DNA of 64,000 bases from an uncultured Gemmatimonadota bacterium (GTDB lineage Bacteria > JAAXHH01 > JABIQT01). Location of the stretch: the NCBI GenBank assembly GCA_964470965.1, contig CAYYIS010000001.1:79247-143246 (forward strand), read 5' to 3'. Below the pieces are notes generated by a model that was not told the origin of the DNA, ran no database searches, and saw only the letters and a list, made by a program, of their open reading frames with translations. The position numbers and the translations under genes are program-made. Within the stretch, counting starts at the first letter, position 1, and every line of letters begins with the position of its first letter. Positions 14,955 through 46,190 of this stretch are shown here, piece by piece.

Positions 14955-15036
14955 TATCGAATAACTCCGTGTTGTGATTGACGAATTGTACGATCATTCC
15001 GTGTCTTCTGGATTATCCCGGTAATCAAACAATCCG

Positions 15037-15294
15037 TCAACCCATTCGCTGTCTCTCTGACTCTATAATCTCATTCTTTGCCGTATCCCTCATCGCCTGA
15101 AACCAGATCTTACATCCCGATCGATGGTGCCACCACTCTGCCTGGCGCCCTGATTCGTTTTTTCGGATGTAGAGATAATCCGTCCACGTCTCCCCGGATG
15201 CGGACACATCAGGCCGTTCCTGCACCTCTCCGCCGAATCTGAATTCATAGACGTTGCGCGGTCCGCAGATGGGACAGGTAATTAGAAATGACAT
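15037..15294 (-). CDS. soxD: sarcosine-oxidase delta-like subunit (mgdB-type)
   Basis: MSFLITCPICGPRNVYEFRFGGE... zinc-ribbon N-terminus typical of SoxD. I chose the internal ATG over the longer ORF start. Confidence 0.8.
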   Translation of the reverse strand: MSFLITCPICGPRNVYEFRFGGEVQERPDVSASGETWTDYLYIRKNESGRQAEWWHHRSGCKIWFQAMRDTAKNEIIESERQRMG

Positions 15295-15434
15295 GACTGC
15301 CTTTCTGTTGGGATTAAACGGTAAAGCTAGACTGAAATTAAAGTGCGGTACGGTGTTTCCCCTGGAAGGAGGCCCCACCGTCTCGGGAGTGATAACGTAA
15401 TTTATACCGGGTAACGCGCCAATTCATCAGTCTG

Positions 15435-16805
15435 TTAATCATCTTTCTCGTTCCACCCCGGCCCGCCGCCGAACACCCTTCTCGTTCCTACCAGTGGGAT
15501 GCCCGTAATCATGGAGGCTTCCAGGGTGAGGGCGCGCATATCTTCAGGTTCCAGATCATGGACGTCCGCTTTACCGCAGGCGCGGGCGAGCATCTGGATT
15601 TCCATGATAGTGGCGGAGAGAAAGTTGGCGGCCCGTTCCGCGGCTTCATCGATAGGCAGGCGCTTCATTAATTCCGGATCTTGGGTGGCGATGCCTACCG
15701 GACACATGCCGGTGTGGCAGTGGTGACAGGCGTGGGGTTCCGCGCCGAGGGCGTGGTAGTCCTCTTCATAGATCGGCTTGTTGCAGTTCAAAGCGATGAG
15801 TGCCGCAGTCCCTACATATATGGCATCCGCACCAAGCGCCATGGCTTTGGCGGCATCGACACCGTTGCGTATGCCGCCTGCGATAATGAGCTGTACCTCT
15901 CCATACAGTTTCATGTCCTCCAGCGCCTCACGGGCCTCACAGACCGCTGCCAGCGTCGGGATGCCGGTATGGTCCATCAGGATATCCGGCGAGGCGCCGG
16001 TGCCGCCTTCCATGCCGTCTATCGCGATAATATCTGCCCCGGCTTTCGCCGCCAGCTTAACGTCATCATATACACGCGATGCGCCTATTTTTACGATGAT
16101 CGGTACCTGCCAGTCGGTGGCCTCCCGCAGTTCTTCAATTTTGATAATCATGTCGTCCGGCCCCAGCATATCCGGATGCCGGCACGGACTCCGCTGATCC
16201 ACGCCCACCGGTAAATCCCGCATTTCCGCGATTTGGTTCGACACTTTGGAGCCCAGGAGCAAACCACCGGTTCCTGGTTTGGCACCCTGGCCAATGGTTA
16301 ATTCAATCCCGTCCGCCATCTGCAGGTGATGGACGTTGCATCCGTATCTGCTTGGCAGCACCTCGTAGATCAGAATTTCCGAGTTCTCTCGCTCCGCCGG
16401 AAGCATGCCACCGTCACCGGTGGTGGTGGAGGTGCCCATTTTTGTGGCGGCCCGTCCCAGCGCCACCTTGGCGTTGTATGAAAGGGCGCCGAAACTCATG
16501 CCGGTTATCATAACCGGAATATCGAGCTCGATCGGTTGTTTCGCGTATCGAGTACCCAGGACTGTCTTTGTGTCGCAGCGCTCGCGGTATCCCTCTAGTG
16601 GAATGCGGGTCAGCGTACAGGGGATGAAAGTCAGGTCGTCCAACGAGGGCAGCGCCCGTTGCCGCAGTGTCCCGAACCCCCGTAACCGGTACCTTCCGAG
16701 ATCCGCTTTCTCCTGCACCTCCGCGATCGCCTGCGGACTCCATAGCGCTCCCTGCCGTAGGACCCTCACCTCCTCCGGTGTATGCTCTGTCTGGTGCTCA
16801 CTCAC
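15435..16805 (-). CDS. mgsC: glutamate-synthase FMN-domain protein (N-methylglutamate synthase subunit C-like)
   Basis: GltB domain-2 homology (GQGAKPGTGGLL, DGMEGGTGASP). Confidence 0.85.
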   Translation of the reverse strand: MSEHQTEHTPEEVRVLRQGALWSPQAIAEVQEKADLGRYRLRGFGTLRQRALPSLDDLTFIPCTLTRIPLEGYRERCDTKTVLGTRYAKQPIELDIPVMITGMSFGALSYNAKVALGRAATKMGTSTTTGDGGMLPAERENSEILIYEVLPSRYGCNVHHLQMADGIELTIGQGAKPGTGGLLLGSKVSNQIAEMRDLPVGVDQRSPCRHPDMLGPDDMIIKIEELREATDWQVPIIVKIGASRVYDDVKLAAKAGADIIAIDGMEGGTGASPDILMDHTGIPTLAAVCEAREALEDMKLYGEVQLIIAGGIRNGVDAAKAMALGADAIYVGTAALIALNCNKPIYEEDYHALGAEPHACHHCHTGMCPVGIATQDPELMKRLPIDEAAERAANFLSATIMEIQMLARACGKADVHDLEPEDMRALTLEASMITGIPLVGTRRVFGGGPGWNEKDD

Positions 16806-16851
16806 TTTGGGAAATCCCCTCTATTTTAGTTTGTTAGTCCGTCACTCCTGA

Positions 16852-17541
16852 TCACAGCGCCGATTTCCACACGTTCCACTCACGTTTATCAAAATTCCAC
16901 AATTTCCTGCCGGAGACAATCTTCCTGAATGCCCCGGGATGTTCGATGCCGAAGCTGGAGAGTTGGTTCGAAATCATAGACTGATCCTCGTCGCTCGGAG
17001 CCTCATCTACCGCGTCGTGCCCCAGCTCCGTGATGTGGCCGGCCACGAAGATGACGCCTTCGTACAGAGAATCGCCGATACCTTCACCGGCGTCGCCACA
17101 CACAATCATTGTTCCTTGCTGCATCATAAATCCGCTCATATAACCCACGTTGCCGCCGACGATCACAGTGCCGCCTTTCATGGCAATGCCGCACCGGGCC
17201 GCCGCGTTGCCGTTGATAACAACGCTGCCGCCCCTGATGGACGCGGCGGCGCCATTGCCGGCGTGTCCGTCGACCATGATGGTACCGTCCATCATACCTT
17301 CACCCACGCCCCATCCGGCACTGCCGTGGATTGCGACTGTTGGGCCGTCTATCAGTCCGGCGCAGTAATAGCCGACGCTGCCATCTATTTCCAGTTGTAC
17401 CGGCTGGACGAGTCCGACACCGATATTGTGCTGGGCGGAAGGGTTGGTAATGCGGACGGCTTCGGCTCCCTCCGCGATATGTTGTCTGATGCCGCGATTG
17501 ATTTCCCGAACGTTTGTGTCCGTACCGTCGATGGTATTCAT
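16852..17541 (-). CDS. mgsB: GXGXG-motif glutamate-synthase domain-3 protein (N-methylglutamate synthase subunit B-like)
   Basis: Repeated GxGxG beta-helix motifs (GSAGWGVGEG, GHAGNGAAAS, GNVGYMSGFMM, GDAGEGIGDSLYEG). Confidence 0.85.
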   Translation of the reverse strand: MNTIDGTDTNVREINRGIRQHIAEGAEAVRITNPSAQHNIGVGLVQPVQLEIDGSVGYYCAGLIDGPTVAIHGSAGWGVGEGMMDGTIMVDGHAGNGAAASIRGGSVVINGNAAARCGIAMKGGTVIVGGNVGYMSGFMMQQGTMIVCGDAGEGIGDSLYEGVIFVAGHITELGHDAVDEAPSDEDQSMISNQLSSFGIEHPGAFRKIVSGRKLWNFDKREWNVWKSAL

Positions 17542-18470
17542 GCGGCCTCCAGTTTTTCCGAGGGGCCGGTCAGCCGCCAGGTGCGGATGGCACCCGGCTG
17601 GGGTTCAAGCGCCTGTACGTCCTGTCCGAAAACAGCACACAATGCCTGCTCTTCGGTGGCTATGGCCACGTAGGCTTCTGTCTCAAGAACCGTCAACGGC
17701 TTTAAACCGAACGGATCTTTTGCGAACCCTAACTGATCACCTGAAGCAGCCAGGTAGCAGAACGACCCATCGAAGTCCTGCATGGATGCTTTCAGCGCTT
17801 CATCGAAACTCATTCCCTGCGACATGCACATTTTCAGATAGATGCCGATAATTTCGGAGTCGTTTTCGGTATAGAAGCGGATGCCCCGCATTTCATACTG
17901 ACGGCGCAGCTTATGGTAGTTTGTGATGTGTCCATTGTGCGCCACCGCTATATCGAGCGTGCCGTGAGCCCAGAACGGTTGTGAATGGCTCAGGTCGACT
18001 CTGCTCTCGGTAGAGAGACGCGTGTGTCCAATCGCGTGTGTGCCGGCAAAACCCTGTACGCCGTACGTCGAATCCAGATTCGCCGGAGACCCGACCTGCT
18101 TCACTATCTCCAAACTATGTCCCATGCTGACCACTTCAATCTCAGGATGCACGGCTTCCAGCGTCCGTTCCATCTCCATGGGATCCCCATTGAAAGAAGC
18201 TTCGATCCGCAGATATGAGCCTGTCACTGACGACTCAATCACATCCGCACACGCGGCCGCTTGTGCAATTACGGCCTCCGCCCTACCTGCCGGCGCTTCA
18301 TGGTCACTCAGTTTTACCCTTAGAAGGAGGCCCGAACCGCGAGTATTAAAGGCCGCAATTCCGGCTGAATCCGGTCCGCGGCGCCCCAGCGCATTTAGCA
18401 TGCCGAGCATGGTAGGTCCTATAGGACCTGCCGAGCCGGATCTGTCGATATATCCGACGATTCCGCACAT
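17538..18470 (-). CDS. mgsA: class II (Ntn) glutamine-amidotransferase-like protein (N-methylglutamate synthase subunit A-like)
   Basis: MCGIVGY N-terminal nucleophile Cys. 4-nt overlap with the downstream GXGXG gene. Confidence 0.85.
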   Translation of the reverse strand: MCGIVGYIDRSGSAGPIGPTMLGMLNALGRRGPDSAGIAAFNTRGSGLLLRVKLSDHEAPAGRAEAVIAQAAACADVIESSVTGSYLRIEASFNGDPMEMERTLEAVHPEIEVVSMGHSLEIVKQVGSPANLDSTYGVQGFAGTHAIGHTRLSTESRVDLSHSQPFWAHGTLDIAVAHNGHITNYHKLRRQYEMRGIRFYTENDSEIIGIYLKMCMSQGMSFDEALKASMQDFDGSFCYLAASGDQLGFAKDPFGLKPLTVLETEAYVAIATEEQALCAVFGQDVQALEPQPGAIRTWRLTGPSEKLEAA

Positions 18471-24610: not shown

Positions 24611-25060
24611 TTAAGACTGCAAAACTTTAGCAAGTTCCTGAATGAGCTCCTCCCTTTTGGCTTTCGATATTTGCCTGCCATGTAACGACAGTCCGGACGT
24701 CTGTCTGGCCAGGCGTCTCAAATTTACCACGGTCATTTGCTCCAGTTCCTTTAGCGAATGATCTGGAGAAACGGTATCCACCGCCGCCGGACGGGTATCC
24801 TGCATGGTGCGCAGCTCGTCATGCGGCCTTGGAATCACATGTTGCGCAATTAGCTCGCCGACTTGCTCCGCCGCGGCCGCACCGGCATCCACTGCCGCAC
24901 GGACCGCCGCCACATTACCCGCGAAGGACACGGTGATCATGGCCGGATCGACGCGCTCTGTACCGACCAGCTGAACCTGCGCCGTCTTCAGTGCCGCATC
25001 CGCAGCTGTTATGGCGCCCACAAGTCCACGTGTTTCTATTAAACCGAGTGCTTCAGACAT
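24611..25060 (-). CDS. BMC-H shell protein with C-terminal Rho_N/HeH-like extension
   Basis: N-terminal BMC domain (ALGLIETRGLVGAITAADAALKTA...VIPRPH). Pore loop reads RVDPAM instead of KVGGGY. The tail MTVVNLRRLARQTSGLSLHGRQISKAKREELIQEL resembles the Rho N-terminal/SAP-like motif. Confidence 0.8.
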   Translation of the reverse strand: MSEALGLIETRGLVGAITAADAALKTAQVQLVGTERVDPAMITVSFAGNVAAVRAAVDAGAAAAEQVGELIAQHVIPRPHDELRTMQDTRPAAVDTVSPDHSLKELEQMTVVNLRRLARQTSGLSLHGRQISKAKREELIQELAKVLQS

Positions 25061-25065
25061 TTGGT

Positions 25066-25338
25066 CTACTCACCCGCAGGAAGAATCGATTCTACGTCGG
25101 AATGAGGCCGCGGAATAACATGTACCGATACAACTTCGCCTACACGCTCCGCGGCCGCTGCTCCGGCATCCGTTGCTGCTTTAACCGCACCCACATCACC
25201 ACGTACCATCACGGTTACATAACCGCCGCCGACCTTTTCTTTACCAACCAGCGTCACCTGAGCTGCCTTGACCATCGCGTCCGCAGCTTCGATTGAAGCG
25301 GTGAGCCCCCTCGTTTCTATCATCCCCAGTGCTTCCAA
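25066..25338 (-). CDS. BMC-H shell protein (PduA/EutM-like)
   Basis: [12 protein letters not shown]...[21 protein letters not shown]...VIPRPH; 90 aa. Confidence 0.92.
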
Positions 25339-25568: not shown

Positions 25569-26822
25569 TTACAGAACCGGCAACATACCGGAAACATCGA
25601 ACGTCAACGGTTGAGGTTTACCGACAATTTCCAGATCGGCACGGGAATTGGCCTCATCCAGAAGAGCCTCCGAGACATCGACCTCCCCTACGTGAAGAGT
25701 ATCCATGATACGTACCATTCGGCTTTCAGCAGGCCGTTTCATTCCGATCGTAGAGAGCGCCGCTTCGATCACTTTTTCATCCGTATCGAAATAGACTGGA
25801 ATCCTGGACTTCTGCGGGCTCATACCGGTAATGGAGTTCACATAGGTGTACTCTGTATTGATCTGATCCACCAGTCGCTTCGTGGTGAAATCCGCCAGTC
25901 CGATCCCCACCGCATTGCCTTCACTTTCCGGTGTCAGGTCTCTTACAAATATACGCAGGATACGCGGTGTTGAGGGCTCGTCTTCAAAATTCTGCATGCG
26001 CCGGCCGATGACGTTGGTGTCCATGCCGGTGCCGCTGATATTTTTGCCCATCTTATCCACGACGAGAATGTCGATATCCTCAAACGGTAGTTTCGGCATC
26101 AATCGTTTCGACTCCTGAAAAAGTGCTCGTTCCCGAGCTTCCAGACCCTCCACCGGAATGCCGACTACATGGGCTGTCTGGTCGTATGCATTTTCTACGA
26201 TCGCCATCCCGAACGCTACCGGCGTCTTAACGATCACCTGGCGCGCCACCGAGGTGATCATTCGCTCGAATCCGTATTGGAACACAGCACCGTGGTAATA
26301 ACTGGCTCCCTTCTGCTTTCCGAGCCCGATGGCCATCATCTTCATCAGGCCGCTGCCGATGTCCCCTTCAAAATCGGTGTGCGGCTTGACCCGGTTGACA
26401 AACACTATATGGTCCGCCTGCAATGCATTGCGATCCACGAATACCGGGAGGCCGTCATCCGTCTCTGCGATCAGCTCAGGTTCGATGTCCGATTTCAACG
26501 GGCACCCCATGCCCGTTTCCGTGATTCCATAATGCGCCAACACCCGGAGTTGGCCTTCCGATGTTGCACCGCCGTGGCTGCCCATAGCCGGAACAATGAA
26601 AGGTTCCATGCCGGCGTTCTGAAGCGCGATGACCGTGTTGCGAACGATAGTGCCGTAATTAGTGATTCCCCGGCTTCCCGCGGCAACCGCTACGGTTCCT
26701 CCGGCCTTCATGCCGGCTTCCTTGATCATTCTGCCCGCTTCCGCCTGGGTGGTTCCCGGGATGTCCTGTACCACCGGTGCTTCAAAGTGCTGCCTTAAAC
26801 GGGCGATGTTAGGATACTCCAT
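25569..26822 (-). CDS. lactate-racemase N-terminal-domain-like (DUF2088-like) protein
   Basis: 417 aa. Motifs GSRGI, PAMGSHGGAT.EGQ, NRVKPHTDF.G..GSGLMKM.AIGLGKQKGA, recalled as typical of the LarA_N-like family. Assignment is from memory only. Confidence 0.45.
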   Translation of the reverse strand: MEYPNIARLRQHFEAPVVQDIPGTTQAEAGRMIKEAGMKAGGTVAVAAGSRGITNYGTIVRNTVIALQNAGMEPFIVPAMGSHGGATSEGQLRVLAHYGITETGMGCPLKSDIEPELIAETDDGLPVFVDRNALQADHIVFVNRVKPHTDFEGDIGSGLMKMMAIGLGKQKGASYYHGAVFQYGFERMITSVARQVIVKTPVAFGMAIVENAYDQTAHVVGIPVEGLEARERALFQESKRLMPKLPFEDIDILVVDKMGKNISGTGMDTNVIGRRMQNFEDEPSTPRILRIFVRDLTPESEGNAVGIGLADFTTKRLVDQINTEYTYVNSITGMSPQKSRIPVYFDTDEKVIEAALSTIGMKRPAESRMVRIMDTLHVGEVDVSEALLDEANSRADLEIVGKPQPLTFDVSGMLPVL

Positions 26823-26835
26823 AGTGTTTCCCTTC

Positions 26836-28206
26836 CTAAATTCCGTTAATGAACCGTCCCGGGTTTAACGTCCGTCGCGGGTCGAAGCGGTCCTTGATCT
26901 GTTTCATCATGCCCCCGTCGTTGCGGGGTGTTCCCCAGACGCTTATTCGTTCCTTGAGGGCCACCGGAGCGTGATCAATCGTCAGGCCGCCGGCCATGTC
27001 CGAAGCTGCTGCGGTCAATTCTGCAAGAATAGATGCCAGGATATCCACAGTTTTATCATCGAACGGTTTCTCAAGATAGAATACTAGTGTCATTGCACCG
27101 TTGCCGAAATGGGAGAGCATGGCGCAACCGACCGGCTGGTTTTTACAACGATCCTCGGCCGTCTGATATAGTCTACCAAGGTCTTCAGGTGGCACACTCG
27201 CCCGACAGACAATTCCCGGCAGCATACCATGCGGCACCGCCTGCCCTGTAGGAATATCCTGGATCACCTCCAGGGTGAGATCGTAAAGGGCGTCCTTAAC
27301 GGAAATTACCTGGGTCGCCCCCATGGTTTCACACAGTTTTCTGGCATCTGCCATCTGCCATTCGACCGATTCCTCCGGTCCGAAGGCACCGATTATGAGC
27401 GGAAACCCCGTATCTCCAAGGCCTCTGCCGGCGCGCCGTGCCAAGATCGCCACCGGTACCGGGTTGGCCATTTCTATAAAACCGGGCGTGATGTCCGAAT
27501 CCAGAACCTGCTGTGCCGCCTCCGTGGCAGTGGATATGGAAGGAAAACGGCCGATAACCGCCTGCCCGGTCTCTGGTTTCGGTTGCACTTTGAGCGTCAC
27601 CTCCACCAGGATACCCAGCGTACCCAGCGCCCCGATATACATCTTATTGAGGTCGTATCCAGCCACATTTTTAACCACTTTGCCGCCGGCTTTCACTACG
27701 GTACCATCCGCCTGCACCACTTTCGTTCCGATCACCAGATCCCTTGCCGTGCCGTACATCCAGCGAAGCGCACCGCTTGAATTGGTAGAGAGAACACCGC
27801 CAATAGTGCAAGTGTCAGAGTGGGGAGGGTCGAGCGGAAAATATTGACCTCCCTGTGCAAGATCCGCCTGCAGGTCTGCCAGCCGAATGCCAGCCTGCAC
27901 GGTTGCCGTCATATCCGCTGGTGCATATTCGATGACCTGGTTCAGTCGCTCCAGGGAAACAATCAGGTCCACCCTTTCCGGAGGCATGCCCAGATCCATC
28001 TTGGTGCCACCGCCCCGGGGCGCCACCTTCAGCCCCTTTTCCGATGCAAACCCTATCACTGCTGCCAGCGTCTCCACGCTATCCGGTGCCACGACCGCGT
28101 CGGGGGCAACACCGTCTATGGTCTGATCCGCCAGTGTGGCCTCATCAGCAGGAATGTAGTCGGAAACGATTGTTTTGAGATCTTTCTGGAGGTCTGCTAA
28201 TCTCAT
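26836..28206 (-). CDS. FAD-binding PCMH-type oxidoreductase (GlcE / FAD-linked oxidase-like)
   Basis: PRGGGTKMDLG and VKNVAGYDL motifs. Its start overlaps the stop of the upstream activase gene (ATGA). Confidence 0.75.
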   Translation of the reverse strand: MRLADLQKDLKTIVSDYIPADEATLADQTIDGVAPDAVVAPDSVETLAAVIGFASEKGLKVAPRGGGTKMDLGMPPERVDLIVSLERLNQVIEYAPADMTATVQAGIRLADLQADLAQGGQYFPLDPPHSDTCTIGGVLSTNSSGALRWMYGTARDLVIGTKVVQADGTVVKAGGKVVKNVAGYDLNKMYIGALGTLGILVEVTLKVQPKPETGQAVIGRFPSISTATEAAQQVLDSDITPGFIEMANPVPVAILARRAGRGLGDTGFPLIIGAFGPEESVEWQMADARKLCETMGATQVISVKDALYDLTLEVIQDIPTGQAVPHGMLPGIVCRASVPPEDLGRLYQTAEDRCKNQPVGCAMLSHFGNGAMTLVFYLEKPFDDKTVDILASILAELTAAASDMAGGLTIDHAPVALKERISVWGTPRNDGGMMKQIKDRFDPRRTLNPGRFINGI

Positions 28207-30149
28207 GTCAAGTCCATCGGCATCGGTTTAAACTGACAGGCTTCCACAAAGATCTCGAAGAAATCGGGCATGGTTTCAAGCTCTATATGTTCTACGGATT
28301 TGACCAGGCCCTCCAGCGCATTCCTTTTGCGTTGTGACAGCAGCACCTCTCGGGCGCCTTGCACTGCAGCGTTGCCTACCTTGACGATACGATTTTCAGG
28401 TACAGGCGCTAGGAAGCCGATGTCTATGGCGTTGGAGACATTCACGTAGTTTGCGAATCCTCCGGCCAGATGCAGTCGGTCCACATCGGCAGGAGAGATG
28501 CCGAACGCCCGCATGACTATATACTGACCACAGTAGTTGGCCGCCTTAGCCTGCGCCAGGTTGCTGGCGTCTTCACGGGACAACGTGAGGTTGTGGTCCG
28601 GAACGACGACCATTTCATATTGTTTCCGGTCGGCGAACACCCCTTTAGGTGTCATCTGCCCATGGCGACGCAATTCCGCCAGAAGATCGATCAGTCCGGA
28701 GCCACAGATACCTCGGGGTGGTAGGTCGCCAATGGTGCGCCAGTTGAAAATGCCATTATGCCATCGGATCGATTCGATGGCACCCTCGTAACCGGGCATA
28801 CCATATCGTATGCCCCCGCCTTCGAATGCAGGGCCAGCCGGACAGGATGCAGCGATAATGCGTCCACCGCCCGCCACGACTACCTCGGTGTTGGTTCCCA
28901 CATCCACCAGCATGGAAATTCCGTCCTGTTTGTCAAGGTCAGTGGCCGCCAGATCCGCGGCCACATCGCCGCCCACATGACTGGCGATCAGTGGCAGGCC
29001 GTAAGCCTTTGCTTTCGGATTAACCCGGATACCGATCCGCCGGGTGCTCTGAACGAGGGCCGTGGTGTCCCGCTCTCCCGCGAGGAACTCGTGCTCCACG
29101 ATCGACTTGTAGGGCTTCTGGCCTATGCTCTGGACGTCCAGTCTGAACAGGATATCACGCATGGTGGAATTGCCGGCTACCACCACTTCATAGATTTCCT
29201 GACGCACGAACCCCAGGCGTTCGGTTAGTTCCTGAATTTCATGGTTGATGGCATTGACCACGGATTTGCGCAGCTCTCCCTGAAACGAGCCGTCATAAGT
29301 AATCCGGTACATCACATCGCTGCCGCCAAACCGCTGCGGATTCTCGAAGGAACTGACATGGACGCTCCGGCCGGATTCCAGGTCCACCAGGTCCATCACT
29401 ATCGTGGTGGTGCCCAGGTCGATAGCCAGTCCGTACAAGCGGCCGCGATAGGTGTCGATCGGTCCACCCTCGTAGTACACCGTATCTCCTTCCCGAGTGA
29501 CTACCGGATCAATCGAGATCCGTTTGTCGTTTGTGAGCGTAAGGATTTTGGGGGTGCGCCGCAGAGGGGTGAACTCGATCAACGCGTCGGCGTCGGCGAC
29601 TTTTGCCTGGCAGGCGAGCCGGTAATTGTCCCGGAGAAACGACTCCGCTTCGGTCCGTGGTTCCAGCGCGTCGACGCCCTGGGTGATCTCGACGATACAC
29701 TCGTGGCAAAGAGCAGAACGCCCGCAGGAGGTAGGCACCTGGACCGCCAACTCGTCAGCATACTCGAAAACAGTGCGTCCTGCAGCCAGCTTTCGGAACG
29801 CACCGTCGTGGGATATGACACCTTCGCCGTAAACGATGGCCGCATCCTCGTGGCCTGGTAGGCCTTCCACGATAGCAGCTGTTCCCGTTTCCCAGGCCTT
29901 ACGGTAATCCAGCTTGTCGTCCCCGCCGCAAAGCATCCGCCCATCCTTCTCACGGGGTTTGCGCTGATTCCGACATCCAAATTTGGCCGTGCATTCATCG
30001 AACCGATTCTTGTACGGACAACGGTACGTCGCCTGCTCGTCCGCATGCACCATCATCTCCGAGAACAGCTCTGTGATCCGGTCCAGGCGCTTCTGGTATT
30101 CGTCTTTGTCTATTTTTTGCATGGGGATATATATTTTTTGAATTTCCAA
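28203..30149 (-). CDS. corrinoid reductive activase (RACo/RamA-type: [2Fe-2S] ferredoxin plus ASKHA ATPase, DUF4445) with Cys-rich N-terminal extension
   Basis: Ferredoxin motif SCGRSALCHECIVEI...RLACQAKV. ASKHA motifs GLAIDLGTTTIV, VAGNSTM, LVDVGTNTEVV, SCPAGPAFEGGGI, GICGSGLIDL, LAGGFANY. About 95 extra N-terminal residues carry 5 Cys. Confidence 0.85.
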   Translation of the reverse strand: MEIQKIYIPMQKIDKDEYQKRLDRITELFSEMMVHADEQATYRCPYKNRFDECTAKFGCRNQRKPREKDGRMLCGGDDKLDYRKAWETGTAAIVEGLPGHEDAAIVYGEGVISHDGAFRKLAAGRTVFEYADELAVQVPTSCGRSALCHECIVEITQGVDALEPRTEAESFLRDNYRLACQAKVADADALIEFTPLRRTPKILTLTNDKRISIDPVVTREGDTVYYEGGPIDTYRGRLYGLAIDLGTTTIVMDLVDLESGRSVHVSSFENPQRFGGSDVMYRITYDGSFQGELRKSVVNAINHEIQELTERLGFVRQEIYEVVVAGNSTMRDILFRLDVQSIGQKPYKSIVEHEFLAGERDTTALVQSTRRIGIRVNPKAKAYGLPLIASHVGGDVAADLAATDLDKQDGISMLVDVGTNTEVVVAGGGRIIAASCPAGPAFEGGGIRYGMPGYEGAIESIRWHNGIFNWRTIGDLPPRGICGSGLIDLLAELRRHGQMTPKGVFADRKQYEMVVVPDHNLTLSREDASNLAQAKAANYCGQYIVMRAFGISPADVDRLHLAGGFANYVNVSNAIDIGFLAPVPENRIVKVGNAAVQGAREVLLSQRKRNALEGLVKSVEHIELETMPDFFEIFVEACQFKPMPMDLT

Positions 30150-30212
30150 TCTTGTATATTGATAATTTGTTTCAGCACGTCTTCAAGAGTTGGCATATCA
30201 GCTTCAACGGTG

Positions 30213-30240
30213 TCAAAACGCAGGAGTCTCTGCGTTTTGA
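30213..30240. repeat. perfect 11-bp inverted repeat (possible bidirectional terminator or operator)
   Basis: TCAAAACGCAG-gagtct-CTGCGTTTTGA inside an AT-rich spacer, about 65 nt upstream of the activase start. Confidence 0.35.
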
Positions 30241-30876
30241 AAGGAAAAGGTGGTTTGTGCTGTGCATCATTACTTCTGAAAATCAATAGGTAGTCAATAT
30301 CTTGACAATGATATCTGGAAAATAACCTTATGGCCCGCGCCGTTTTCCATATCGATATTTCAAATATATTGCAGAGTGGCCCATCCACAAACACCAGGGA
30401 GCCACACTCATTTGACTGGCCTAAAGGCCGGACTCGATTGCGGCATCTCTTGTGATCCGGCTTCTGGTGTGACGATATTTGGACTCCTTCCGGCTGTCTA
30501 TGTAGGACTGAATGTCCATCCGCGGCATGTTCCACGAAATGATGTGATTTGAGTTGTGTTACCCCTTGATGGTTTCACGGTGTTGCCCAACGGCTGCGTC
30601 GTCAGGCCGGAAGCGCATCAGGCGCTCCGGGTGGTTGCGCAGATTTCCGGAAGAGATTTTTGTGGCGGTCCATCGCTTGAGGCGGGTGGGTTCAGCGAAG
30701 TGGACTCGCTCCATACTAACGGCGCACAGGAGGCGGCGAATAGTGTTGTGGGCCGAGGTGTATGAGGCCGTGAGTGTTATCTTAAAATTTTACCGAGGGG
30801 ACGTTGTAAATATTTTGAGTCGTCACAGCCGGATCAAATCGTCTCAAATGTCACCCTCCCGCCTTCATCCATGCTT

Positions 30877-31641
30877 CTATCCGCCTTGCTCCTCTTTCAA
30901 TTCTTCCAGCAGGCGCTTGGCCAGGTCTACGCAGGCGACGGCGTCCTTACCGGTGCCGTCGGCGCCCATGTCGTCGGCGAATTCCTGCGTTACCGAGGCG
31001 CCACCGACCATGATTTTTACATCGTCGCGCAAATCCGCGTCGATGAAGGCGTCAATGGTTTTACCCATGTTGGGCATGGTGGTGGTGAGCAGGGCCGACA
31101 TACCGACCAGCGGTGCTTCGTGCTCTTCCACTGCGTCGATGAATTCGTCCTCGGAGGTATCCACGCCTAGATCGTGTACCTCCATGCCAGAGCCGCGCAG
31201 CATCATGATGCACAAGTTTTTTCCGATGTCATGCAGGTCACCTTTGACCGTCCCCATGATGACCGTCCCGATGGGCTTGATGCCCGAGGCGGACAGTATC
31301 GGTTCGATGTAGGCCATGCCGGCCTTCATGGCCCGGGCGCAGGCAAGGACTTCCGGGACGAATATGAAGTTCTCCCGGAACTTGATCCCTACGATACTCA
31401 TTCCGGCGATGAGCCCGTCATCCATGATCTCCAACGCGTCGGTGCCCGCATCGAGAGCAGCACCGGTCATTTCATCTACACTGTTGTTGTCACCATCAAT
31501 GAGTGCCGCGGCTATTTCCTGCATGGCCGGCGACGTTCCGGAAAATACATTGATGATACGCTCCCGGTCAGCGGGAGCTTCAATAAATTCCTCTATCTCA
31601 TCCCTGATAAACTCATTCTCTATCGCGTTTATGTCCGGCAT
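30877..31641 (-). CDS. corrinoid (cobalamin-binding) methyltransferase carrier protein
   Basis: B12-binding cap helix bundle followed by a Rossmann domain with the DxHxxG motif (KGDLHDIGKNL) and MSALLTTT. GAGGAAG lies before the ATG. About 35 extra N-terminal residues. Confidence 0.88.
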   Translation of the reverse strand: MPDINAIENEFIRDEIEEFIEAPADRERIINVFSGTSPAMQEIAAALIDGDNNSVDEMTGAALDAGTDALEIMDDGLIAGMSIVGIKFRENFIFVPEVLACARAMKAGMAYIEPILSASGIKPIGTVIMGTVKGDLHDIGKNLCIMMLRGSGMEVHDLGVDTSEDEFIDAVEEHEAPLVGMSALLTTTMPNMGKTIDAFIDADLRDDVKIMVGGASVTQEFADDMGADGTGKDAVACVDLAKRLLEELKEEQGG

Positions 31642-31667
31642 TACTTCCTCTCATTCTGTGCTTGTTT

Positions 31668-32711
31668 TTACGCCGCATGCTCCATATGCCATTCCCGGAC
31701 TGCGATCGGAATTTCTTTGAGGTTTTCGATTGAGGTTTGCAGCGGGATGGCACATTCCGGACCTACCAGCTGTACACCGGAATCCAGGTTCTTGTAGACT
31801 TCGGCACGTACCTCTTCTGGCCCGCGGGCGAACAGCGTTTCGGGATTGTTAATGTTTCCCACCAGCGAAATGCGTTCCTTCACCACATCCATAGATTCGT
31901 CCGGTTCGTTCTTGGAGTCGTAGTGAAAAGCGGCAAAACCCGTCTGTGCGATGTAATCCATCCGGTCCACGGTCCGACCACAGATATGCATAATCAACGG
32001 TATAGGAATCCGCTCTACAAGTTCAATGTGCAGGTCGAGTAAAAACCGTTTGTAGTACTCACCGCTGACCAGATCGCCGGTTGCATGGTCCGGTAGCGTC
32101 AGGGCGTCAGCGCCGGCCTCTATCTGTGCGATGCCGAATTCTATGGTGGCTTCTTTCATGCGGTCCAGCGCCAGCTTGGTCCTGCCGGGATCGTCCAGGG
32201 ACAGGAGCAGAAACGGTTCGACGCCGAAGCAATGGTAGCCCAGTGACCACGGTCCCATTGTTTTGCCAATGACGGCCACTTCATCACCGTATTCTTTCTT
32301 AAGCTTTGTAATAGCGTCAAGTACACACTTTGTATCTTGATGGGTCAGATAGTCCGATGGGATCTTGATGTCGTCCGCATCTTCCCAGATAGGCTCACCC
32401 ATTTTCACGGTCGGCCAGTTGTCCTTTTGCTCCCACTGAATATTGCAGCCCAGGGCCGATGACTCCTGTATAATAGTAAATACCGGCATGATGGAATCAA
32501 ACCCGAGTTCGGTGTATCCGGTCGCAGCCAGGCGGGCCATCAGTTCGGGATTCCGGTTGGCTTCCGGAAACGGCGCGTCTACCAGGTCCATCAGTTCCAC
32601 GGTGGCGACGGACGTGGGATTGCACACGGGCGTACGATCCACCGGTTTCCTGTCAAGCGCAGCCAGCACGCGTTCGCGTCCTGTCATAGGGGGTACGGTT
32701 GTTATGGTCAT
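31668..32711 (-). CDS. URO-D-family methyltransferase (MtaA/MtbA/CmuA-like methylcobamide methyltransferase)
   Basis: N-terminus MTGRERVLAALDRKPVDRTPV, 347 aa TIM-barrel family pattern, HICG motif. Sits next to the corrinoid protein gene. Confidence 0.75.
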   Translation of the reverse strand: MTITTVPPMTGRERVLAALDRKPVDRTPVCNPTSVATVELMDLVDAPFPEANRNPELMARLAATGYTELGFDSIMPVFTIIQESSALGCNIQWEQKDNWPTVKMGEPIWEDADDIKIPSDYLTHQDTKCVLDAITKLKKEYGDEVAVIGKTMGPWSLGYHCFGVEPFLLLSLDDPGRTKLALDRMKEATIEFGIAQIEAGADALTLPDHATGDLVSGEYYKRFLLDLHIELVERIPIPLIMHICGRTVDRMDYIAQTGFAAFHYDSKNEPDESMDVVKERISLVGNINNPETLFARGPEEVRAEVYKNLDSGVQLVGPECAIPLQTSIENLKEIPIAVREWHMEHAA

Positions 32712-32760
32712 GGTTGTCCTTATTTTCCAAGGGTTGTACCTGATGAATTTTATCCTTGAT

Positions 32761-33399
32761 TTACCTGTCCTGCTGACTCGGGGCGGCTAAAACGCCCCGG
32801 GAGGTGGTGGCTTCCTGTTCCCGCAGGGCAGCTCGGACATTTGGGGCACGCACTAGCAGGAGTCCGAGCATGGCATCATGAGGCTGGCCACACGGAAAAC
32901 TGATCAGGTCGAGACGCTGTCCCTCCTCTTTCATCTGTCCCAGCTTCATCAGGCCGCCGGCAATGAACGAGATGCGTTTTACCTTATCTTTCCCTTCGCC
33001 CTCCGCGATGACCTGATACCGGCCGTTTTCTTGGCTGACGATTTTCATCGTGTCCCCGGACTTCTTATCAAAAACCTGCAATGGCCGTGGTGTCAGTTTC
33101 TTATCCGAAGGCAGTTTGCAGGCTTCCAGGAATACGCGTTTTATCGCCAGTTCATGTTCCTGGCCGCACGGGAATCGGAGCAACCCGTCTGAATCGACGT
33201 CCATGCCACCCAGGAAACACATGGCGTTGTTCAGGAATGCGACGCGTCCCGATGCGGCTTCCAGGCCGCTGTACGTATGCACCAGGTACGCAGGTCCCGC
33301 ATCCTGAGACTGACGGTACAGAGCGATAGAGATATCATGACAGTGCGGATCCATGGGCACCAGTTCGATACGTCTGCCTATTTCAAGGGTCTGACCCAT
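32761..33399 (-). CDS. hypothetical protein with internal two-fold repeat (FPCGQxH motif twice)
   Basis: Repeat 1: RVAFLNNAMCFLGGMDVDSDGLLRFPCGQEHELAIKRVFLEA. Repeat 2: RISFIAGGLMKLGQMKEEGQRLDLISFPCGQPHDAMLGLLLVRA. I chose ATG 33399 (GAGG upstream) over the 33453 ORF start. I recognise no family. Confidence 0.55.
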   Translation of the reverse strand: MGQTLEIGRRIELVPMDPHCHDISIALYRQSQDAGPAYLVHTYSGLEAASGRVAFLNNAMCFLGGMDVDSDGLLRFPCGQEHELAIKRVFLEACKLPSDKKLTPRPLQVFDKKSGDTMKIVSQENGRYQVIAEGEGKDKVKRISFIAGGLMKLGQMKEEGQRLDLISFPCGQPHDAMLGLLLVRAPNVRAALREQEATTSRGVLAAPSQQDR

Positions 33400-33412
33400 A
33401 CGGTATACCTCG

Positions 33413-33688
33413 CTAATTGATACAGAACCATTTACTATTGTACTCGCGCTCAATTTCCTCTATTAGTGCTTCCATAACGATTTCGGCACTGCCGGACCGT
33501 TCCTTTTTTTCCGTCCATCGCCACTGATCCAGGTATGCATCTGTGCCGGCCAGACCTTCCGCCATGGCTACCCGGTCGATTTCAAACTGGAACCATTCCG
33601 GCATCTGGCGGTTCACCGGCCGCTTGCCATGGTAGACTCTAACTTGCGCGGGTATGTCTCTCCAATAGAGAACCTGATAGACCGTCAT
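33413..33688 (-). CDS. small corrinoid-cluster-associated protein ('virulence factor' domain-like, YWRDIP motif)
   Basis: 91 aa, MTVYQVLYWRDIPAQVRV... I recall this small domain family as co-occurring with or fused to B12-binding domains. From memory, unverified. Confidence 0.5.
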   Translation of the reverse strand: MTVYQVLYWRDIPAQVRVYHGKRPVNRQMPEWFQFEIDRVAMAEGLAGTDAYLDQWRWTEKKERSGSAEIVMEALIEEIEREYNSKWFCIN

Positions 33689-33748
33689 TGAACGTCTTAC
33701 CTATTAATTCATCGATCATTAGAAAAGGCGGTAGACCTATGGATCAAT

Positions 33749-34765
33749 CTAATCCGCCTGCACGATTCTGGACCGTTCGTCCACCACCTGGCGGAACGCA
33801 CGGATATGCTCAGGGCCAGTGCCGCAGCAACCCCCTACCATAAACGCGCCTGCGTCAAGGAGTTCAGGGAGATAGCTTGCCATCTCCTCCGGGCTTTGTG
33901 AATAGTAGGTGTTGTGGTTTTCGTCGAGTTGGGCTTTGCCCGCGTTGGGGTGAGTCATCATGTGCTTCGGTTTCATGCCTCGCTGTTCCATTGCAGCGCT
34001 CAGCTGCCGGGTGCCGATGATCGCATAGGGCATACCTGTATGCTCATCCCGTCTCGACTCCGCGCCGCAGTTAAGGCCCAGAAGCTGGACGCTGTCCAGG
34101 AGGTCCACGCCATCGGACAACTCTCCACTGGCGAGAATGTCCAGAAGATCCACCGCGGAATTGCCCCAGTCTGTCTTGTAGATCACGTTTCCGGTATCGC
34201 GGTCCTTTGTGTATTTGTATGTCAGGTTCACCGCAATAGGGAGACCGAACTGGCGGATCATATCAACTGCTATGGCCGCCTCTTTGGCAGAAAACATGGT
34301 TTCTATGCAGAAAAAATCCACACCGCTTTCCGCGAGGATGGCCGCCACCTTCTCATGGGCGTCTCTGGCCACTTGGTTTGGGATGCCGAATACCGTGTCG
34401 CCGCTATCCGCCTCGATGGCGCCCGGCAGCGGACCGATCGAACCGCCCAAATACACCTCTTTCTCACTTCGTTCGATGGCTGCCCTGGCCAATTCCACCG
34501 AACGCCTCACAAGGTTATCCGACTCCGATGGGTCTTTGTCGGCCATCTCTAGATGTGGGAAAGACGCCACGAACGTGTTGGTTTCTATAGCATCCGATCC
34601 CGCTTCGATATAATCAAAATGGATATCCGTCACTGCTTCCGGATGCAGCTCATTCGCAAGTGCGCTGTTCGCCAGTTCGATCCCCCTGGCAAACAACTGA
34701 GATCCGAATCCCCCGTCGAAAATAATCGGATCGGGATCGTTTAGTCTATCTATGAATGACTTCAT
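33749..34765 (-). CDS. homocysteine S-methyltransferase-domain protein (MetH module-1-like)
   Basis: FDGGFGSQL, ETNTF, zinc-ligand Cys motifs GLNCG and GGCCGTGPEHI; 338 aa, single domain. Confidence 0.85.
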   Translation of the reverse strand: MKSFIDRLNDPDPIIFDGGFGSQLFARGIELANSALANELHPEAVTDIHFDYIEAGSDAIETNTFVASFPHLEMADKDPSESDNLVRRSVELARAAIERSEKEVYLGGSIGPLPGAIEADSGDTVFGIPNQVARDAHEKVAAILAESGVDFFCIETMFSAKEAAIAVDMIRQFGLPIAVNLTYKYTKDRDTGNVIYKTDWGNSAVDLLDILASGELSDGVDLLDSVQLLGLNCGAESRRDEHTGMPYAIIGTRQLSAAMEQRGMKPKHMMTHPNAGKAQLDENHNTYYSQSPEEMASYLPELLDAGAFMVGGCCGTGPEHIRAFRQVVDERSRIVQAD

Positions 34766-35727
34766 GATGCCGTTGCCTGTCCTTCAAAATTGATCTCGCC
34801 TCTTACGTTCATCTCCATCGGACGCAGGCTGTGATATATGAATGTATTGATCGGTGTCTCTACGCCAGTTTCCTGTCCCATCCGTACTACGGCACCCACC
34901 TGGTTTTCGAGTTCCGAGTATCGGCCGGCCATCACGTCCCGTTGCATGGATGCTGTACCGCCGTATTCCACGCTGTCCAGGATAGCCATGGTTTTAGCCA
35001 CGATATCTTCGGGCAGCGCTATGTTCCTGGCCTTCGCCACCGCATGAATTTCTTCCATAGCCCTCTCCAACAGACGGCGCGTGCCGGGCTGGCTGCGCAC
35101 CGCACCGATGGGTGCCCGGGTCACACCGCCTACGCCGCTCCACGAGGCGATGAGAATGTATTTGCGCCACATAGCCGCCTGGATGTCCTGGGGTGCATCC
35201 ACGATCAGGCCCTTTGCACGGGAAAATGCCTCATGCAATTTATCGACCCGACCGCTCCGTCGGTTGTCCCATTCCCCGAAGTTGACAAACGGTTCATAAG
35301 CCACATGCTGAATATAGCCGGGACCGGCTTTGAACGAAACGATACCGCATACGCCGCCCAACACGTGTTTCCATCCCAGCACCTCGGCCAGTTGGCCCGG
35401 TGCTTCCACGCCATTTTCCATAGGGAGCACGTAAGTATCCGGGCCGATCATCGGGCGTATGGCCTCCGCCGCCTCAGATACCTGCCAGCATTTAACGCAG
35501 ACGATAACCACATCGACGATGCCTGCCTCAACCGGGTCATCGGTAGCATCTACCGGCTTTACTACGAAGTCACCTTTGGTGCTCTCGACCTTTAACCCAT
35601 GTTTCCGCATCGTCTGAAGATGCTCTCCACGGGCTATAAACACCACATCTTCACCTGCTTCGGCAAGACGACCGCCATAGTAGCCTCCGACACCGCCTGC
35701 ACCGAACACCGCAATCCGCACGTTCAC
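34762..35727 (-). CDS. ketopantoate-reductase-family (PanE/ApbA) NAD(P)H oxidoreductase
   Basis: IAVFGAGGVGGYYGGRLAEAG Rossmann motif, 321 aa. 4-nt overlap with the downstream Hcy-methyltransferase gene. Confidence 0.75.
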   Translation of the reverse strand: MNVRIAVFGAGGVGGYYGGRLAEAGEDVVFIARGEHLQTMRKHGLKVESTKGDFVVKPVDATDDPVEAGIVDVVIVCVKCWQVSEAAEAIRPMIGPDTYVLPMENGVEAPGQLAEVLGWKHVLGGVCGIVSFKAGPGYIQHVAYEPFVNFGEWDNRRSGRVDKLHEAFSRAKGLIVDAPQDIQAAMWRKYILIASWSGVGGVTRAPIGAVRSQPGTRRLLERAMEEIHAVAKARNIALPEDIVAKTMAILDSVEYGGTASMQRDVMAGRYSELENQVGAVVRMGQETGVETPINTFIYHSLRPMEMNVRGEINFEGQATAS

Positions 35728-38305: not shown

Positions 38306-38881
38306 TCAGACTTTCTTTTTTATCAATTCCAGGAATTCCGCCCGAGTCGCGCGGTTCTCTCGGAACCAGCCGTGCATGGCGCTCGTAGTCGCATTCGAGT
38401 TCTGTTTCTGGACGCCCCGCATCATCATACACAGGTGTGAAGCCTCTATTACTACCCCCACTCCCTTAGGGTTCAGCCATTCCTGAAGGGTCTGCGCGAT
38501 CTGTGTGGTCAGCCGCTCCTGAACTTGAAGGCGACGTGCATAGATCTCCACAAGTCGGGCCACTTTACTCAGTCCTATGATCTTACGTTCCGGCAGATAG
38601 GCGATGTGGCACTTTCCGAAGAACGGTAGCATATGGTGTTCACAGAGCGAATAGAACTCGATATCCTTTACAACCACCATCTCATCATAGCCTTCGTCCT
38701 CGAAAATCGCGCCGTTCAGGACGGAGTTCGGCTCTTCCTGATAACCTTTGGTTAAAAACCTCATGGATTGCGCCACTCGGTCCGGAGTTCTCCTCAGGCC
38801 TTCCCGCTCAGGGTCTTCCCCTATCTCCGTGAGGAGTGAACGGGTAAATGCTTCAATAGGGTCTGCCATCGATTTCTCCAT
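38306..38881 (-). CDS. folE: GTP cyclohydrolase I
   Basis: [51 protein letters not shown]. Start taken at an internal ATG so it does not overlap the upstream gene. Confidence 0.9.
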
Positions 38882-39683
38882 AGTATTCAAACGCGTTGTT
38901 CGATGTCTCCACAAGCCGGATTTTATACAGTTCCGGTGAAGTAAAATGCGGCACCAGTCGATTCCAGATAACCCTGGCGAACTCTTCCGATGTCGGGTTT
39001 ACCGATCGAAATTCTTCTAGATCTTCGTTCAGGTTCTTGTGATCAAACCGGTTCAGGACCTCGGATTCGATAACACGATCCAGTTCCCCCAGCGCCATGA
39101 CCGTTCCGGTCTTCATGTCGATCGTACCTCTTACCGTGACTTCGAGCTGATAGTTGTGCCCGTGCCCGTTCGGGTTGTTGCATTTACCAAATAGGAGGGC
39201 ATTTTCTTCATCGCTGAGCATCGGGCTGTGAAGCCGGTGCGCCGCGTTGAATTCAATCTGCCGTGTTACATACATCATATCATCTCCTCCGTAATATTCT
39301 ATGTATCTTGTTCTGCTTTCATGGAGGCGAACCCGAAAAAGCGTACAACCTCTCACCCCCGGATACAACCTGTTCCAAAGTGCGTAGGTGAGTATCTCCG
39401 ATGACGGTACCAAGCCCTGGAACTCCATGACATCGTGGTTCAGGTGCGTCATATCCAGCACACCGACCGTATCGTTGAGGATCTGCTTGATGTCGACCAG
39501 GTTGACGACAATACTGGACTCTGCCCGAATCACTCCTTTTACGGTAACTTCACAAATATAATCATGTCCATGGCCGGATCCCATCGCGCAGGCACCGTAC
39601 TGCCGAAGGTTCTGCTGTTCCGTCCAACGGATGTTTCGGCATGCGTGGGCTGCGGAGAACCTGATTTTCCGGGTGAGATACAT
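38853..39683 (-). CDS. tandem (duplicated) 6-pyruvoyl-tetrahydropterin synthase / QueD-family protein
   Basis: Two PTPS domains in one 276-aa ORF: FSAAHAC...[11 protein letters not shown] and FNAAHRL...[13 protein letters not shown]. Confidence 0.85.
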
Positions 39684-45990: not shown

Positions 45991-46190
45991 CCCAATTCCT
46001 TCTCAAAGCCCTCAATAATATGATTTAAACAGTCCACAGTCAAGTCAAATCTTAACCATAACATAAGGATTTGATTAAAGGTTATGCTATGTTTACGACC
46101 GTGATTTTTCAGGTCAGGATTGACACGGTACTCTACAGACCCTATTGTAAAGAAGCTTTTAGACCATGCGACCGTTATGAGGAGCCTGTC

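Follow-up and report, generated by a model that had tools for sequence, protein, structure and literature searches.

Split methionine synthases (MetH) reactivated by a RamA-like protein are already established. In P. inhibens, MetH consists of three parts and is accompanied by a RamA-like activase (Price et al. 2018, PMC5764234), and in R. pomeroyi the demethylation of glycine betaine by MtgB and the synthesis of methionine by MtgE share a single corrinoid protein and a single pterin module, with a MetF paralogue alongside (Mausz et al., PMC12478193). Here, we analyse a related gene cluster on a stretch of 64,000 nucleotides from an uncultured Gemmatimonadota bacterium (contig CAYYIS010000001.1, positions 79,247–143,246), hereafter termed the window. 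The cluster at positions 28203–34765 of the window combines separate homocysteine, corrinoid and activase proteins with a URO-D-family methyltransferase and, to judge from its sequence and its relatives, appears to be one copy of a conserved B12-dependent methyl-transfer cassette of marine bacteria and sponge symbionts. We tentatively propose, with slightly less than even confidence, that the cassette constitutes a corrinoid hub through which homocysteine receives a methyl group from a thioether or a selenoether, and that this would probably let the methyl groups of methylated sulfur compounds enter methionine. A first-pass annotation of the window had already pointed to RamA-reactivated split MetH systems, and the work on P. 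inhibens bears this out.

All components listed in that annotation are present on the minus strand between 28203 and 34765, and nearly every gene between 25.5 and 46 kb of the window is encoded on this strand. From upstream to downstream, the cluster and its preceding gene are composed as follows.

34762–35727, minus strand: ApbA/PanE-family 2-oxoacid reductase (PF02558 and PF08546; TIGR00745, 250 bits, above cut-off)
33749–34765, minus strand: HcyMT, a stand-alone homocysteine S-methyltransferase module of 338 amino acids (aa) (PF02574, E = 1e-52)
33413–33688, minus strand: PF13769 'Virulence_fact' protein of 91 aa (E = 1.9e-18)
32761–33399, minus strand: Unk212, a protein of 212 aa without Pfam or NCBIfam match
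31668–32711, minus strand: MtaA/CmuA-family (URO-D fold) zinc methyltransferase of 347 aa, or 339 aa in some gene calls (PF01208, E = 8.6e-65; TIGR01463, 254 bits)
30877–31641, minus strand: corrinoid methyl-carrier protein of 254 aa (PF02607, B12-binding_2 cap, and PF02310, B12-binding Rossmann domain)
30123–30876: gap of 754 bp separating the RACo gene from the corrinoid gene, probably non-coding and lineage-specific
28203–30122/30149, minus strand: RACo/RamA-type, predicted ATP-dependent reductive activase (Fer2, Raco_middle and RACo_C_ter, E = 1e-65)

Domain and motif scans bear out this inventory. HcyMT carries the motifs GLNCG (aa 230–234), GGCCG (aa 311–315), DGGFG, IETNTF and CIETM including the three zinc cysteines, and the corrinoid protein the DxHxxG motif in the form DLHDIG (aa 135–140) together with SAL (aa 182–184) and VGG (aa 212–214). 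RACo comprises 639 aa from the ATG at 30122, where the gene calls on identical metagenome contigs also start, and contains all three expected domains, i.e. a 2Fe-2S ferredoxin domain with the cysteine motif CGRSALCHEC (aa 142–151), a middle domain and an ASKHA ATPase domain; its score with the AcsV model (283 bits) lies below the cut-off, and its ATP dependence is predicted from the family. For Unk212 the listed open reading frame (ORF) extends to 33453, but the homologues and the gene calls on identical metagenome contigs begin at M19. The claim that the window encodes neither a pterin-binding nor an S-adenosylmethionine (SAM)-dependent reactivation domain also stands: no pterin-binding or long methylenetetrahydrofolate reductase (MTHFR) homologue was detected in the 64-kb window by tblastn with the proteins of three relatives (E ≤ 1e-3), and neither PF00809 nor PF02965 matched any of the ca. 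50 window ORFs scanned with Pfam. The cassette thus agrees with the split-MetH definition of Price et al. in its separate homocysteine (Hcy) protein, its separate protein with B12 cap and B12-binding domains and its RamA-like (DUF4445/RACo) activase, except for the separate PF00809 protein, which is absent from the window. A classification as MtgBCD is contradicted by the absence of PF06253 among the scanned ORFs and by the scores of the corrinoid protein, whose nearest NCBIfam models, MtgC_2 (196 bits, cut-off 370) and pyl_corrinoid (181 bits), are both below cut-off, as is the other MtgC equivalog model (166 bits, cut-off 310).

The cluster was compared with 159 related loci forming two deeply divergent clades. 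The main clade was obtained by a genome scan yielding 80 loci (L001–L080), of which 68 have large flanks, and neighbours were judged within 10 kb; its hosts are metagenome-assembled genomes of Poribacteria, Latescibacterota, Gemmatimonadota, Acidobacteriota and Opitutales, many of which, according to their bin names, presumably derive from sponge metagenomes. The pelagic clade comprises the contigs of a divergent Unk212 branch and 80 further marine-metagenome loci, 19 loci having large flanks. Conservation of the neighbourhood, which had been suggested as a check, was found, as HcyMT, Unk212, the MtaA-like protein, the corrinoid protein and RACo are encoded together in both clades. Of the 138 testable loci, 136 have the Unk212 gene directly upstream of the gene for the MtaA-like protein (80/80 in the main clade and 56/58 pelagic loci with room), and this pairing persists even at 28% identity between the Unk proteins. 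Among the 68 well-flanked main-clade loci, the corrinoid gene occurs in 41, RACo in 39, the PF13769 gene in 30, a gene for MTHFR plus DUF5981 (534 aa) in 28, a MeTr-like pterin gene in 26 and HcyMT in 25. The following gene orders were distinguished.

Order I: GntR regulator (opposite strand), Unk, MtaA, corrinoid, RACo, (PhyH), MTHFR, pterin, then HcyMT-PF13769 or PF13769-Ldh_2-HcyMT
Order II, that of the window: ApbA, HcyMT, PF13769, Unk, MtaA, corrinoid, RACo (L013, L018, L019, L028, L031, L032, L077, L079), with no pterin or MTHFR gene within 10 kb
Orders III and IV: solitary Unk-MtaA pairs, in some Poribacteria
Pelagic order: (pterin), PF13769, HcyMT, Unk, MtaA, (pterin), corrinoid, small Cys-rich ORF, RACo

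The pelagic cassette is often followed by a regulator combining an ArsR-type helix-turn-helix domain with a methyltransferase fold, by MetF (TIGR00676, 327 bits, above cut-off) and by a PGDH-like dehydrogenase, which may supply serine and one-carbon (C1) units. In its domain architecture the regulator corresponds to SahR, the methionine regulator responsive to S-adenosylhomocysteine. Stop and start codons overlap between ApbA and HcyMT (by 4 bp) and between RACo and the next gene in the window, and between HcyMT and Unk and between MtaA and pterin genes in the pelagic clade. The conserved core accordingly consists of HcyMT, Unk212, the MtaA-like protein, the corrinoid protein and RACo, the pterin module being frequent but optional within the cassette.

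Some loci deviate in composition or context. The solitary Poribacteria pairs (L015, L022, L036, L038, L040, L044 and L054; L035 and L042–L080 in part) lie in one group between MraW/FtsL/PBP cell-division and Rieske/cytochrome b genes and in another behind a PQQ-like β-propeller and a β-lactamase-fold gene, in both cases with no corrinoid gene within 10 kb. The Acidobacteriota contig CBDFLD010000014.1 carries two cassette copies ca. 60 kb apart; that of L029 is complete, while L026 ends with the contig after RACo, so that any pterin, MTHFR and HcyMT genes fall outside the view. Three genes recur downstream of pelagic cassettes (L137, 17908–19730; L124, L128, L148, L171), namely one resembling N-methyl-L-tryptophan oxidase (470 bits, above cut-off), an uncharacterised ORF of 230 aa and a gene for a second 2-hydroxyacid dehydrogenase.

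The URO-D protein had been considered MtaA-like in the first-pass annotation, and the present data agree. It passes the MtaA/CmuA-family model TIGR01463 (254 bits, cut-off 235) and PRK06252 (258 bits, cut-off 244), stays below the equivalog cut-offs of MtaA (NF040654, 238 versus 400 bits) and MtbA (205 versus 600 bits) and scores 69 bits with the hemE model TIGR01464 (cut-off 303). The closest structure is that of MtaA of M. mazei (pdb-code: 4AY7; E = 9e-53, 32% identity), HemE structures following with 1e-12 or worse. His242, Cys244 and Cys320 align to the MtaA zinc ligands, which belong to the motifs HICG and PGCG in 4AY7, and none of the three residues varies among 121 sequences. On the basis of these hidden Markov model (HMM) scores and zinc ligands, which stand in for a phylogeny of the URO-D family, we assign the protein to the MtaA type and not to HemE. 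A genuine uroporphyrinogen decarboxylase clustered here by accident would be compatible with the Pfam assignment PF01208, but its probability is negligible and this identity is refuted by the HMM scores, the structural match, the conserved zinc triad and the conserved synteny with the genes for RACo and the corrinoid protein. For the MtaA-like protein, more than 2,600 homologues were found, the closest being 82–97% identical. Across the main-clade loci (L001–L080, match at ca. 10001–11040), which span at least five phyla, the protein is 82–90% identical compared to 45–65% for Unk212; such values suggest either a very strong constraint or that the gene has recently spread horizontally between marine and sponge bacteria living side by side.

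In the UroD superfamily the His-Cys-Cys triad marks S- and Se-methyltransferases, whereas O-methyltransferases and O-demethylases replace the cysteines (Kountz & Balskus, PMC10418091), and the haloalkane enzyme CdmB contains no zinc (PMC13222342). The invariant His-Cys-Cys site, together with the zinc-less CdmB, therefore disfavours methoxylated compounds and halomethanes as methyl donors. Methoxylated compounds had been proposed earlier beside methylamines and a non-folate pterin, and MT1 enzymes of the URO-D family are indeed known for methoxylated and halomethane substrates. However, CmuA, a fused MT1-corrinoid protein that diverges early in the superfamily (PMC13222342), was not recovered as a relative, since a tblastn search of plasmids for CmuA or other annotated relatives gave HemE-like matches only (≤27% identity). 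The N-methylglutamate (NMG) genes (8432–18470) and the FolE/PTPS pair (38306–39683), which had served as donor clues, are present in the window. Neither these nor the ABC-transporter, microcompartment and selenium genes of the window recur near the cassette in the 80 main-clade genome loci, and they lend no support to a methylamine or a non-folate pterin; furthermore, no MttB-family gene was detected among the scanned window ORFs. A donor of any of these four kinds is thus considered quite improbable.

In the pterin-less gene order of the window, two thiol-type zinc enzymes would share a single corrinoid protein, and by homology the following scenario can be drawn. RACo with its Cys-rich N-terminal module would reduce the corrinoid protein back to the Co(I) state at the expense of ATP and one electron. 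The MtaA-type enzyme together with Unk212, whose His-Cys-Cys zinc site would handle sulfur or selenium, might exchange a methyl group between a methyl thioether or methyl selenoether and the cobalt, and the MetH-type Hcy module would transfer the methyl group of CH3-Co(III) to homocysteine, giving methionine. The simplest net reaction would be a thioether/selenoether:homocysteine transmethylation (R-S-CH3 + homocysteine → R-SH + methionine), i.e. a folate-independent, B12-dependent methionine synthesis or methyl salvage, in which the donor and the direction of transfer are putative. MtsA illustrates that an enzyme of the MtaA type is able to demethylate thioethers as well as to methylate a thiol, and the net reaction formally corresponds to that of the methanogen methylthiol:coenzyme M (CoM) system with homocysteine replacing CoM. 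In many relatives a MeTr-like module and MTHFR would additionally give this corrinoid protein access to the C1 pool of folate, in the manner of the roseobacter MtgBCDE hub.

The earlier description of the system as carrying a URO-D partner instead of a pterin-binding module applies to the window and to many other cassettes, but not as a general property. A MeTr-like pterin gene is found inside the cassette in 26 of the 68 main-clade and 7 of the 19 pelagic well-flanked loci, often beside MTHFR/MetF; its product is closest to the model of the methyl-tetrahydrofolate (CH3-THF):corrinoid methyltransferase (210 bits, cut-off 259). The URO-D module supplements split MetH and does not generally replace its pterin module. 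Such a composition would also arise if the cassette were an ordinary split MetH (CH3-THF → corrinoid → homocysteine) with its pterin module elsewhere in the genome, and if the MtaA-like protein and Unk212 formed either an output or accessory branch, methylating thiols, sulfide or selenide for detoxification or volatilisation, or a structural part of the synthase. We regard this possibility, the main alternative, as less likely than not. It is backed by the MeTr-like and MTHFR/MetF genes sharing the cassette in many relatives, by the methionine-regulon-like context in the pelagic clade (MetF, ArsR/methyltransferase-fold regulator, PGDH-like dehydrogenase), by the role of MtaA in methanogens as a methyl-acceptor enzyme, as reflected in the family names, by the in vitro methylation of selenide by a clostridial MtaA homologue (PMC10418091) and by the housekeeping surroundings of some Unk-MtaA pairs (between MraW/PBP and Rieske/cytochrome b genes). 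However, the split MetH systems of P. inhibens and R. pomeroyi function without an MtaA-like component, a benefit of B12-dependent S-methylation is not evident, and many complete cassettes (e.g. L149–L155, L164–L167) lack a pterin gene within 10 kb. Because of the latter, the pterin-less cassettes are still most economically interpreted as transferring a methyl group directly from donor to corrinoid to homocysteine, or as performing the thiol chemistry in reverse.

The nature of the Hcy module bears on the question whether the cluster is one system at all. Among solved structures, HcyMT is closest to the Hcy domain of T. maritima MetH (E = 1.4e-23), followed by MmuM (2e-18) and BHMT, while its NCBIfam scores rank YitJ (164 bits, cut-off 453), the rhizobial 'BHMT' PRK07534 (123 bits, cut-off 338) and MmuM (120 bits, cut-off 215) above MetH (89 bits), all below cut-off. 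Sequence alone gives no choice between a MetH-like and an MmuM/BHMT-like module, and synteny favours corrinoid dependence. Following the NCBIfam ranking, HcyMT could be a corrinoid-independent enzyme of the MmuM/YitJ/BHMT type using SAM or S-methylmethionine, placed beside an unrelated demethylase (MtaA-like protein, corrinoid protein and RACo) that hands its methyl group to folate via a MeTr elsewhere; in line with this, 55 of the 80 main-clade loci have no Hcy gene within 10 kb. Conversely, 25 main-clade loci have HcyMT in synteny with the corrinoid genes, and in 48 of 55 pelagic loci it is located directly upstream of Unk, its stop codon overlapping the start of the latter; this linkage is realised in three gene orders in clades sharing 26–30% HcyMT identity only. 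The top structural match is a MetH Hcy domain, and the rhizobial 'BHMT' family is itself now interpreted as a split-MetH Hcy module (PMC12478193). The tight and repeated synteny makes two unrelated neighbouring systems unlikely.

Unk212 is a new protein family and the obligate upstream partner of the MtaA-like gene. It has no sequence match in the PDB, as in Pfam and NCBIfam, and none of the at least 120 homologues listed contains a Pfam domain, all being named hypothetical; a profile search retrieved 268 relatives only among 1.84 billion representative proteins. Its AF2 model (pLDDT 87.9, pTM 0.85) found no counterpart in the PDB by Foldseek at E < 0.1, the best match having E = 0.17. The protein is built by an internal duplication of a strands-plus-helix unit with one FPCxxxH motif per half, and Cys78, His82, Cys170 and His174 are invariant in 33 main-clade sequences, which suggests a Cys2His2 metal site. 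The most conserved part consists of the C-terminal helix and the tail with the invariant RGVLAAPSQQ; the divergent branch, with ca. 28% identity to the window protein, has its own conserved C-terminal tail, RGQMTTxTLGFS. Within the main clade Unk212 diverges more rapidly than the MtaA-like protein (64% versus 86.5% identity on pairwise average), the pairwise identities of both being correlated (r = 0.81). For this pseudo-dimeric protein, encoded between the genes of two barrel methyltransferases, we infer a role as specificity subunit or scaffold.

The proposed transfer from a thioether or selenoether to homocysteine has to be weighed against several points. In methanogens MtaA acts on the methyl-acceptor side, so that the MtaA-type module could be an exit instead of an entry. 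About one third of the well-flanked loci contain a MeTr-like gene, and CH3-THF may be the main donor there; likewise, the genome of the window may carry a pterin module elsewhere. The corrinoid dependence of the Hcy module is deduced solely from synteny, and the top NCBIfam match of HcyMT is the N-terminal half of the YitJ-type bifunctional enzyme, albeit below cut-off. The Cys and His residues of the FPCxxxH motifs are partly lost in two divergent Unk212 members (P0377 and P0385), which makes the metal site more likely structural than catalytic and a catalytic site doubtful. Finally, no conserved transporter or catabolic gene pointing to the methyl donor was seen near the cassettes, a finding compatible with a membrane-permeant or intracellular donor but proving nothing.

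Two further small modules accompany the cassette. The PF13769 protein was predicted with a pLDDT of 88.7 but without a Foldseek match in the PDB at E < 0.1, is unrelated to Unk212 according to hhalign and occurs as a stand-alone protein of ca. 90 aa in all of the at least 120 homologues listed; its gene, present in 31 main-clade and 34 pelagic-clade loci, accompanies those of the Hcy and pterin modules. In RACo, the Cys-rich N-terminal module (ca. 90 aa, RCPYKN motif, ca. 29880–30122, minus strand) is fused to the activase in the window and in 18 loci, and forms a separate ORF of 80–115 aa in 32 loci (9 main-clade and 23 pelagic-clade, e.g. L110, L142 and L149). The 754-bp gap upstream of the RACo gene is absent in relatives with the same gene order and is probably non-coding and specific to the lineage. 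It gave no Rfam match even at E ≤ 1, and blastx and tblastx against the related loci revealed no similarity, which indicates that it is not a visibly decayed gene. Rfam found nothing in the remainder of the window and two tRNAs only in 14 related loci. An ORF of 141 aa at 30110–30535 is not supported as a gene, having a weak sub-threshold match only.

As to the surroundings of the cassette, three oxidoreductase families recur beside it, namely ApbA, Ldh_2 and a D-2-hydroxyacid or PGDH-like dehydrogenase. The ApbA/PanE gene is found directly upstream of HcyMT with 70–73% identity in six relatives of the same gene order (L018, L019, L028, L031, L077, L079). The other 2-hydroxyacid genes of the window, i.e. 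LarA-like and GlcD/E-like, are lineage-specific: a GlcE-like FAD oxidase and a nickel-pincer LarA-like isomerase (NCBIfam 'group 22', 518 bits) are encoded close behind RACo (25569–28206, minus strand), first with a 4-bp overlap between the RACo stop and the oxidase start and then with a 13-bp gap, an arrangement seen in the window lineage only. A microcompartment set of the Planctomycetes/Verrucomicrobia type is split around the cassette, with two shell genes on one side (24611–25338, minus strand) and class II aldolase, acetate kinase, PduL/PTAC and aldehyde dehydrogenase genes on the other (48359–53449, plus strand); this locus may account for the nearby lactate-type enzymes (LarA-like, GlcD/E-like oxidases, 2-hydroxyacid dehydrogenase). 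The FolE/PTPS pair (minus strand), a GTP cyclohydrolase I and a double-domain PTPS, lies downstream of genes for a DHH phosphoesterase and an ABC transporter of the Bmp (nucleoside-like) type and is kept in the contigs of the window lineage only (L081–L085). Selenium-related genes (SelA, AIRS/SelD-like, class-V aminotransferase, DUF2064) are located 12–20 kb from the cassette (45154–48283 and 54686–55705). MtaA homologues have been linked to methylselenide use, yet the selenium genes are absent from the 80 genome loci.

If the hub interpretation is correct, the concept of a split, RamA-reactivated MetH whose corrinoid protein is shared with a demethylase, shown recently and until now only for glycine betaine in roseobacters, would extend to an MtaA-type S/Se-methyltransferase. 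Its host range would be widened to Poribacteria, Latescibacterota, Gemmatimonadota, Acidobacteriota, Verrucomicrobiota and pelagic lineages, and the compact cassette of ca. 7.5 kb exposes two or three small families without known role (Unk212, the PF13769 protein and the Cys-rich RACo-N module). With a methylated sulfur compound as donor, the marine organosulfur cycle would be tied to B12-dependent methionine synthesis. A 'DMS methyltransferase' acting on dimethyl sulfide (DMS) was proposed decades ago, and a study on Methylophaga thiooxydans in 2019 could not identify the enzyme (PMC6548844). As a bolder speculation, to which we attach a low probability, Unk212 and the MtaA-like protein might be a cobalamin-dependent methyltransferase of aerobic marine bacteria for DMS, methanethiol or methylmercaptopropionate that feeds methionine and, together with MeTr, the folate C1 pool, Unk212 being a specificity or scaffold subunit with a new fold; the pair would then be a concrete candidate for the enzyme sought. 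A literature search retrieved no paper describing the cassette or Unk212.

Compared to canonical MetH, the cassette retains the Hcy motifs (DGxxG, NTF, ET and the three zinc cysteines) and the B12 cap and Rossmann domains with DxHxxG, but its modules are separate proteins, a SAM reactivation domain and, in the window, a pterin module are absent, and an MtaA-type module is added. The chloromethane pathway (CmuA/CmuB/MetF2) of aerobes follows a similar overall logic, a single locus encoding an MtaA-like MT1 with a corrinoid module as well as a pterin-binding MT2 and a paralogue of MTHFR; the cassette differs in that MT1 and corrinoid protein are not fused as in the early-diverging CmuA, and its zinc site of the S-type points away from halides. 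With the methanogen systems MtsA/MtsB, MtaABC and MtpCA of Methanosarcina it shares an MtaA-type His-Cys-Cys zinc enzyme acting on a small corrinoid protein and RamA-type reactivation. It is set apart from them by the 32% identity to M. mazei MtaA, the bacterial hosts, the Unk212 partner, the lack of MtaB and an acceptor that is likely homocysteine, via a MetH-type module, and not CoM. Bacterial type 1 mlp clusters (PMC10418091) also encode His-Cys-Cys MtaA homologues, a corrinoid protein and a RACE/RACo activase, often without a folate methyltransferase, and methyl-sulfur or methyl-selenium chemistry has been proposed for them. They contain two or three Mlp paralogues and reside in strict anaerobes (mostly Firmicutes), whereas the cassette, found in marine and sponge-associated phyla, adds Unk212 and an Hcy module and, in the window and the related loci alike, has a single URO-D gene, which precludes the Mlp2 and Mlp3 pair of type 1.

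The closest correspondence exists to MtgBCDE and the roseobacter split MetH. Common to both are separate Hcy (PF02574), corrinoid (PF02607 and PF02310) and pterin (PF00809) proteins, reactivation by a RamA/RACo-type ATP-dependent enzyme and not by a SAM domain, a corrinoid protein serving both a substrate methyltransferase and methionine synthesis (for the cassette as proposed here), a nearby MTHFR paralogue and a life as aerobic marine bacteria. In contrast, the pterin module is missing from the window and from many cassettes, DUF1638 was not found, the PF13769 protein and the Cys-rich RACo-N module are extra, and the corrinoid and Hcy proteins fall below the MtgC and 'BHMT' cut-offs. Above all, the substrate methyltransferase is an MtaA-type URO-D zinc enzyme with Unk212 in place of the MttB-family MtgB. 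While split RamA-reactivated MetH hubs are already known, the joining of an MtaA-type module and Unk212 to a MetH-type Hcy module appears to be new, and by analogy the cassette might be understood as an Mtg/split-MetH hub in which an MtaA-type S/Se-methyltransferase and Unk212 have taken the position of MtgB.

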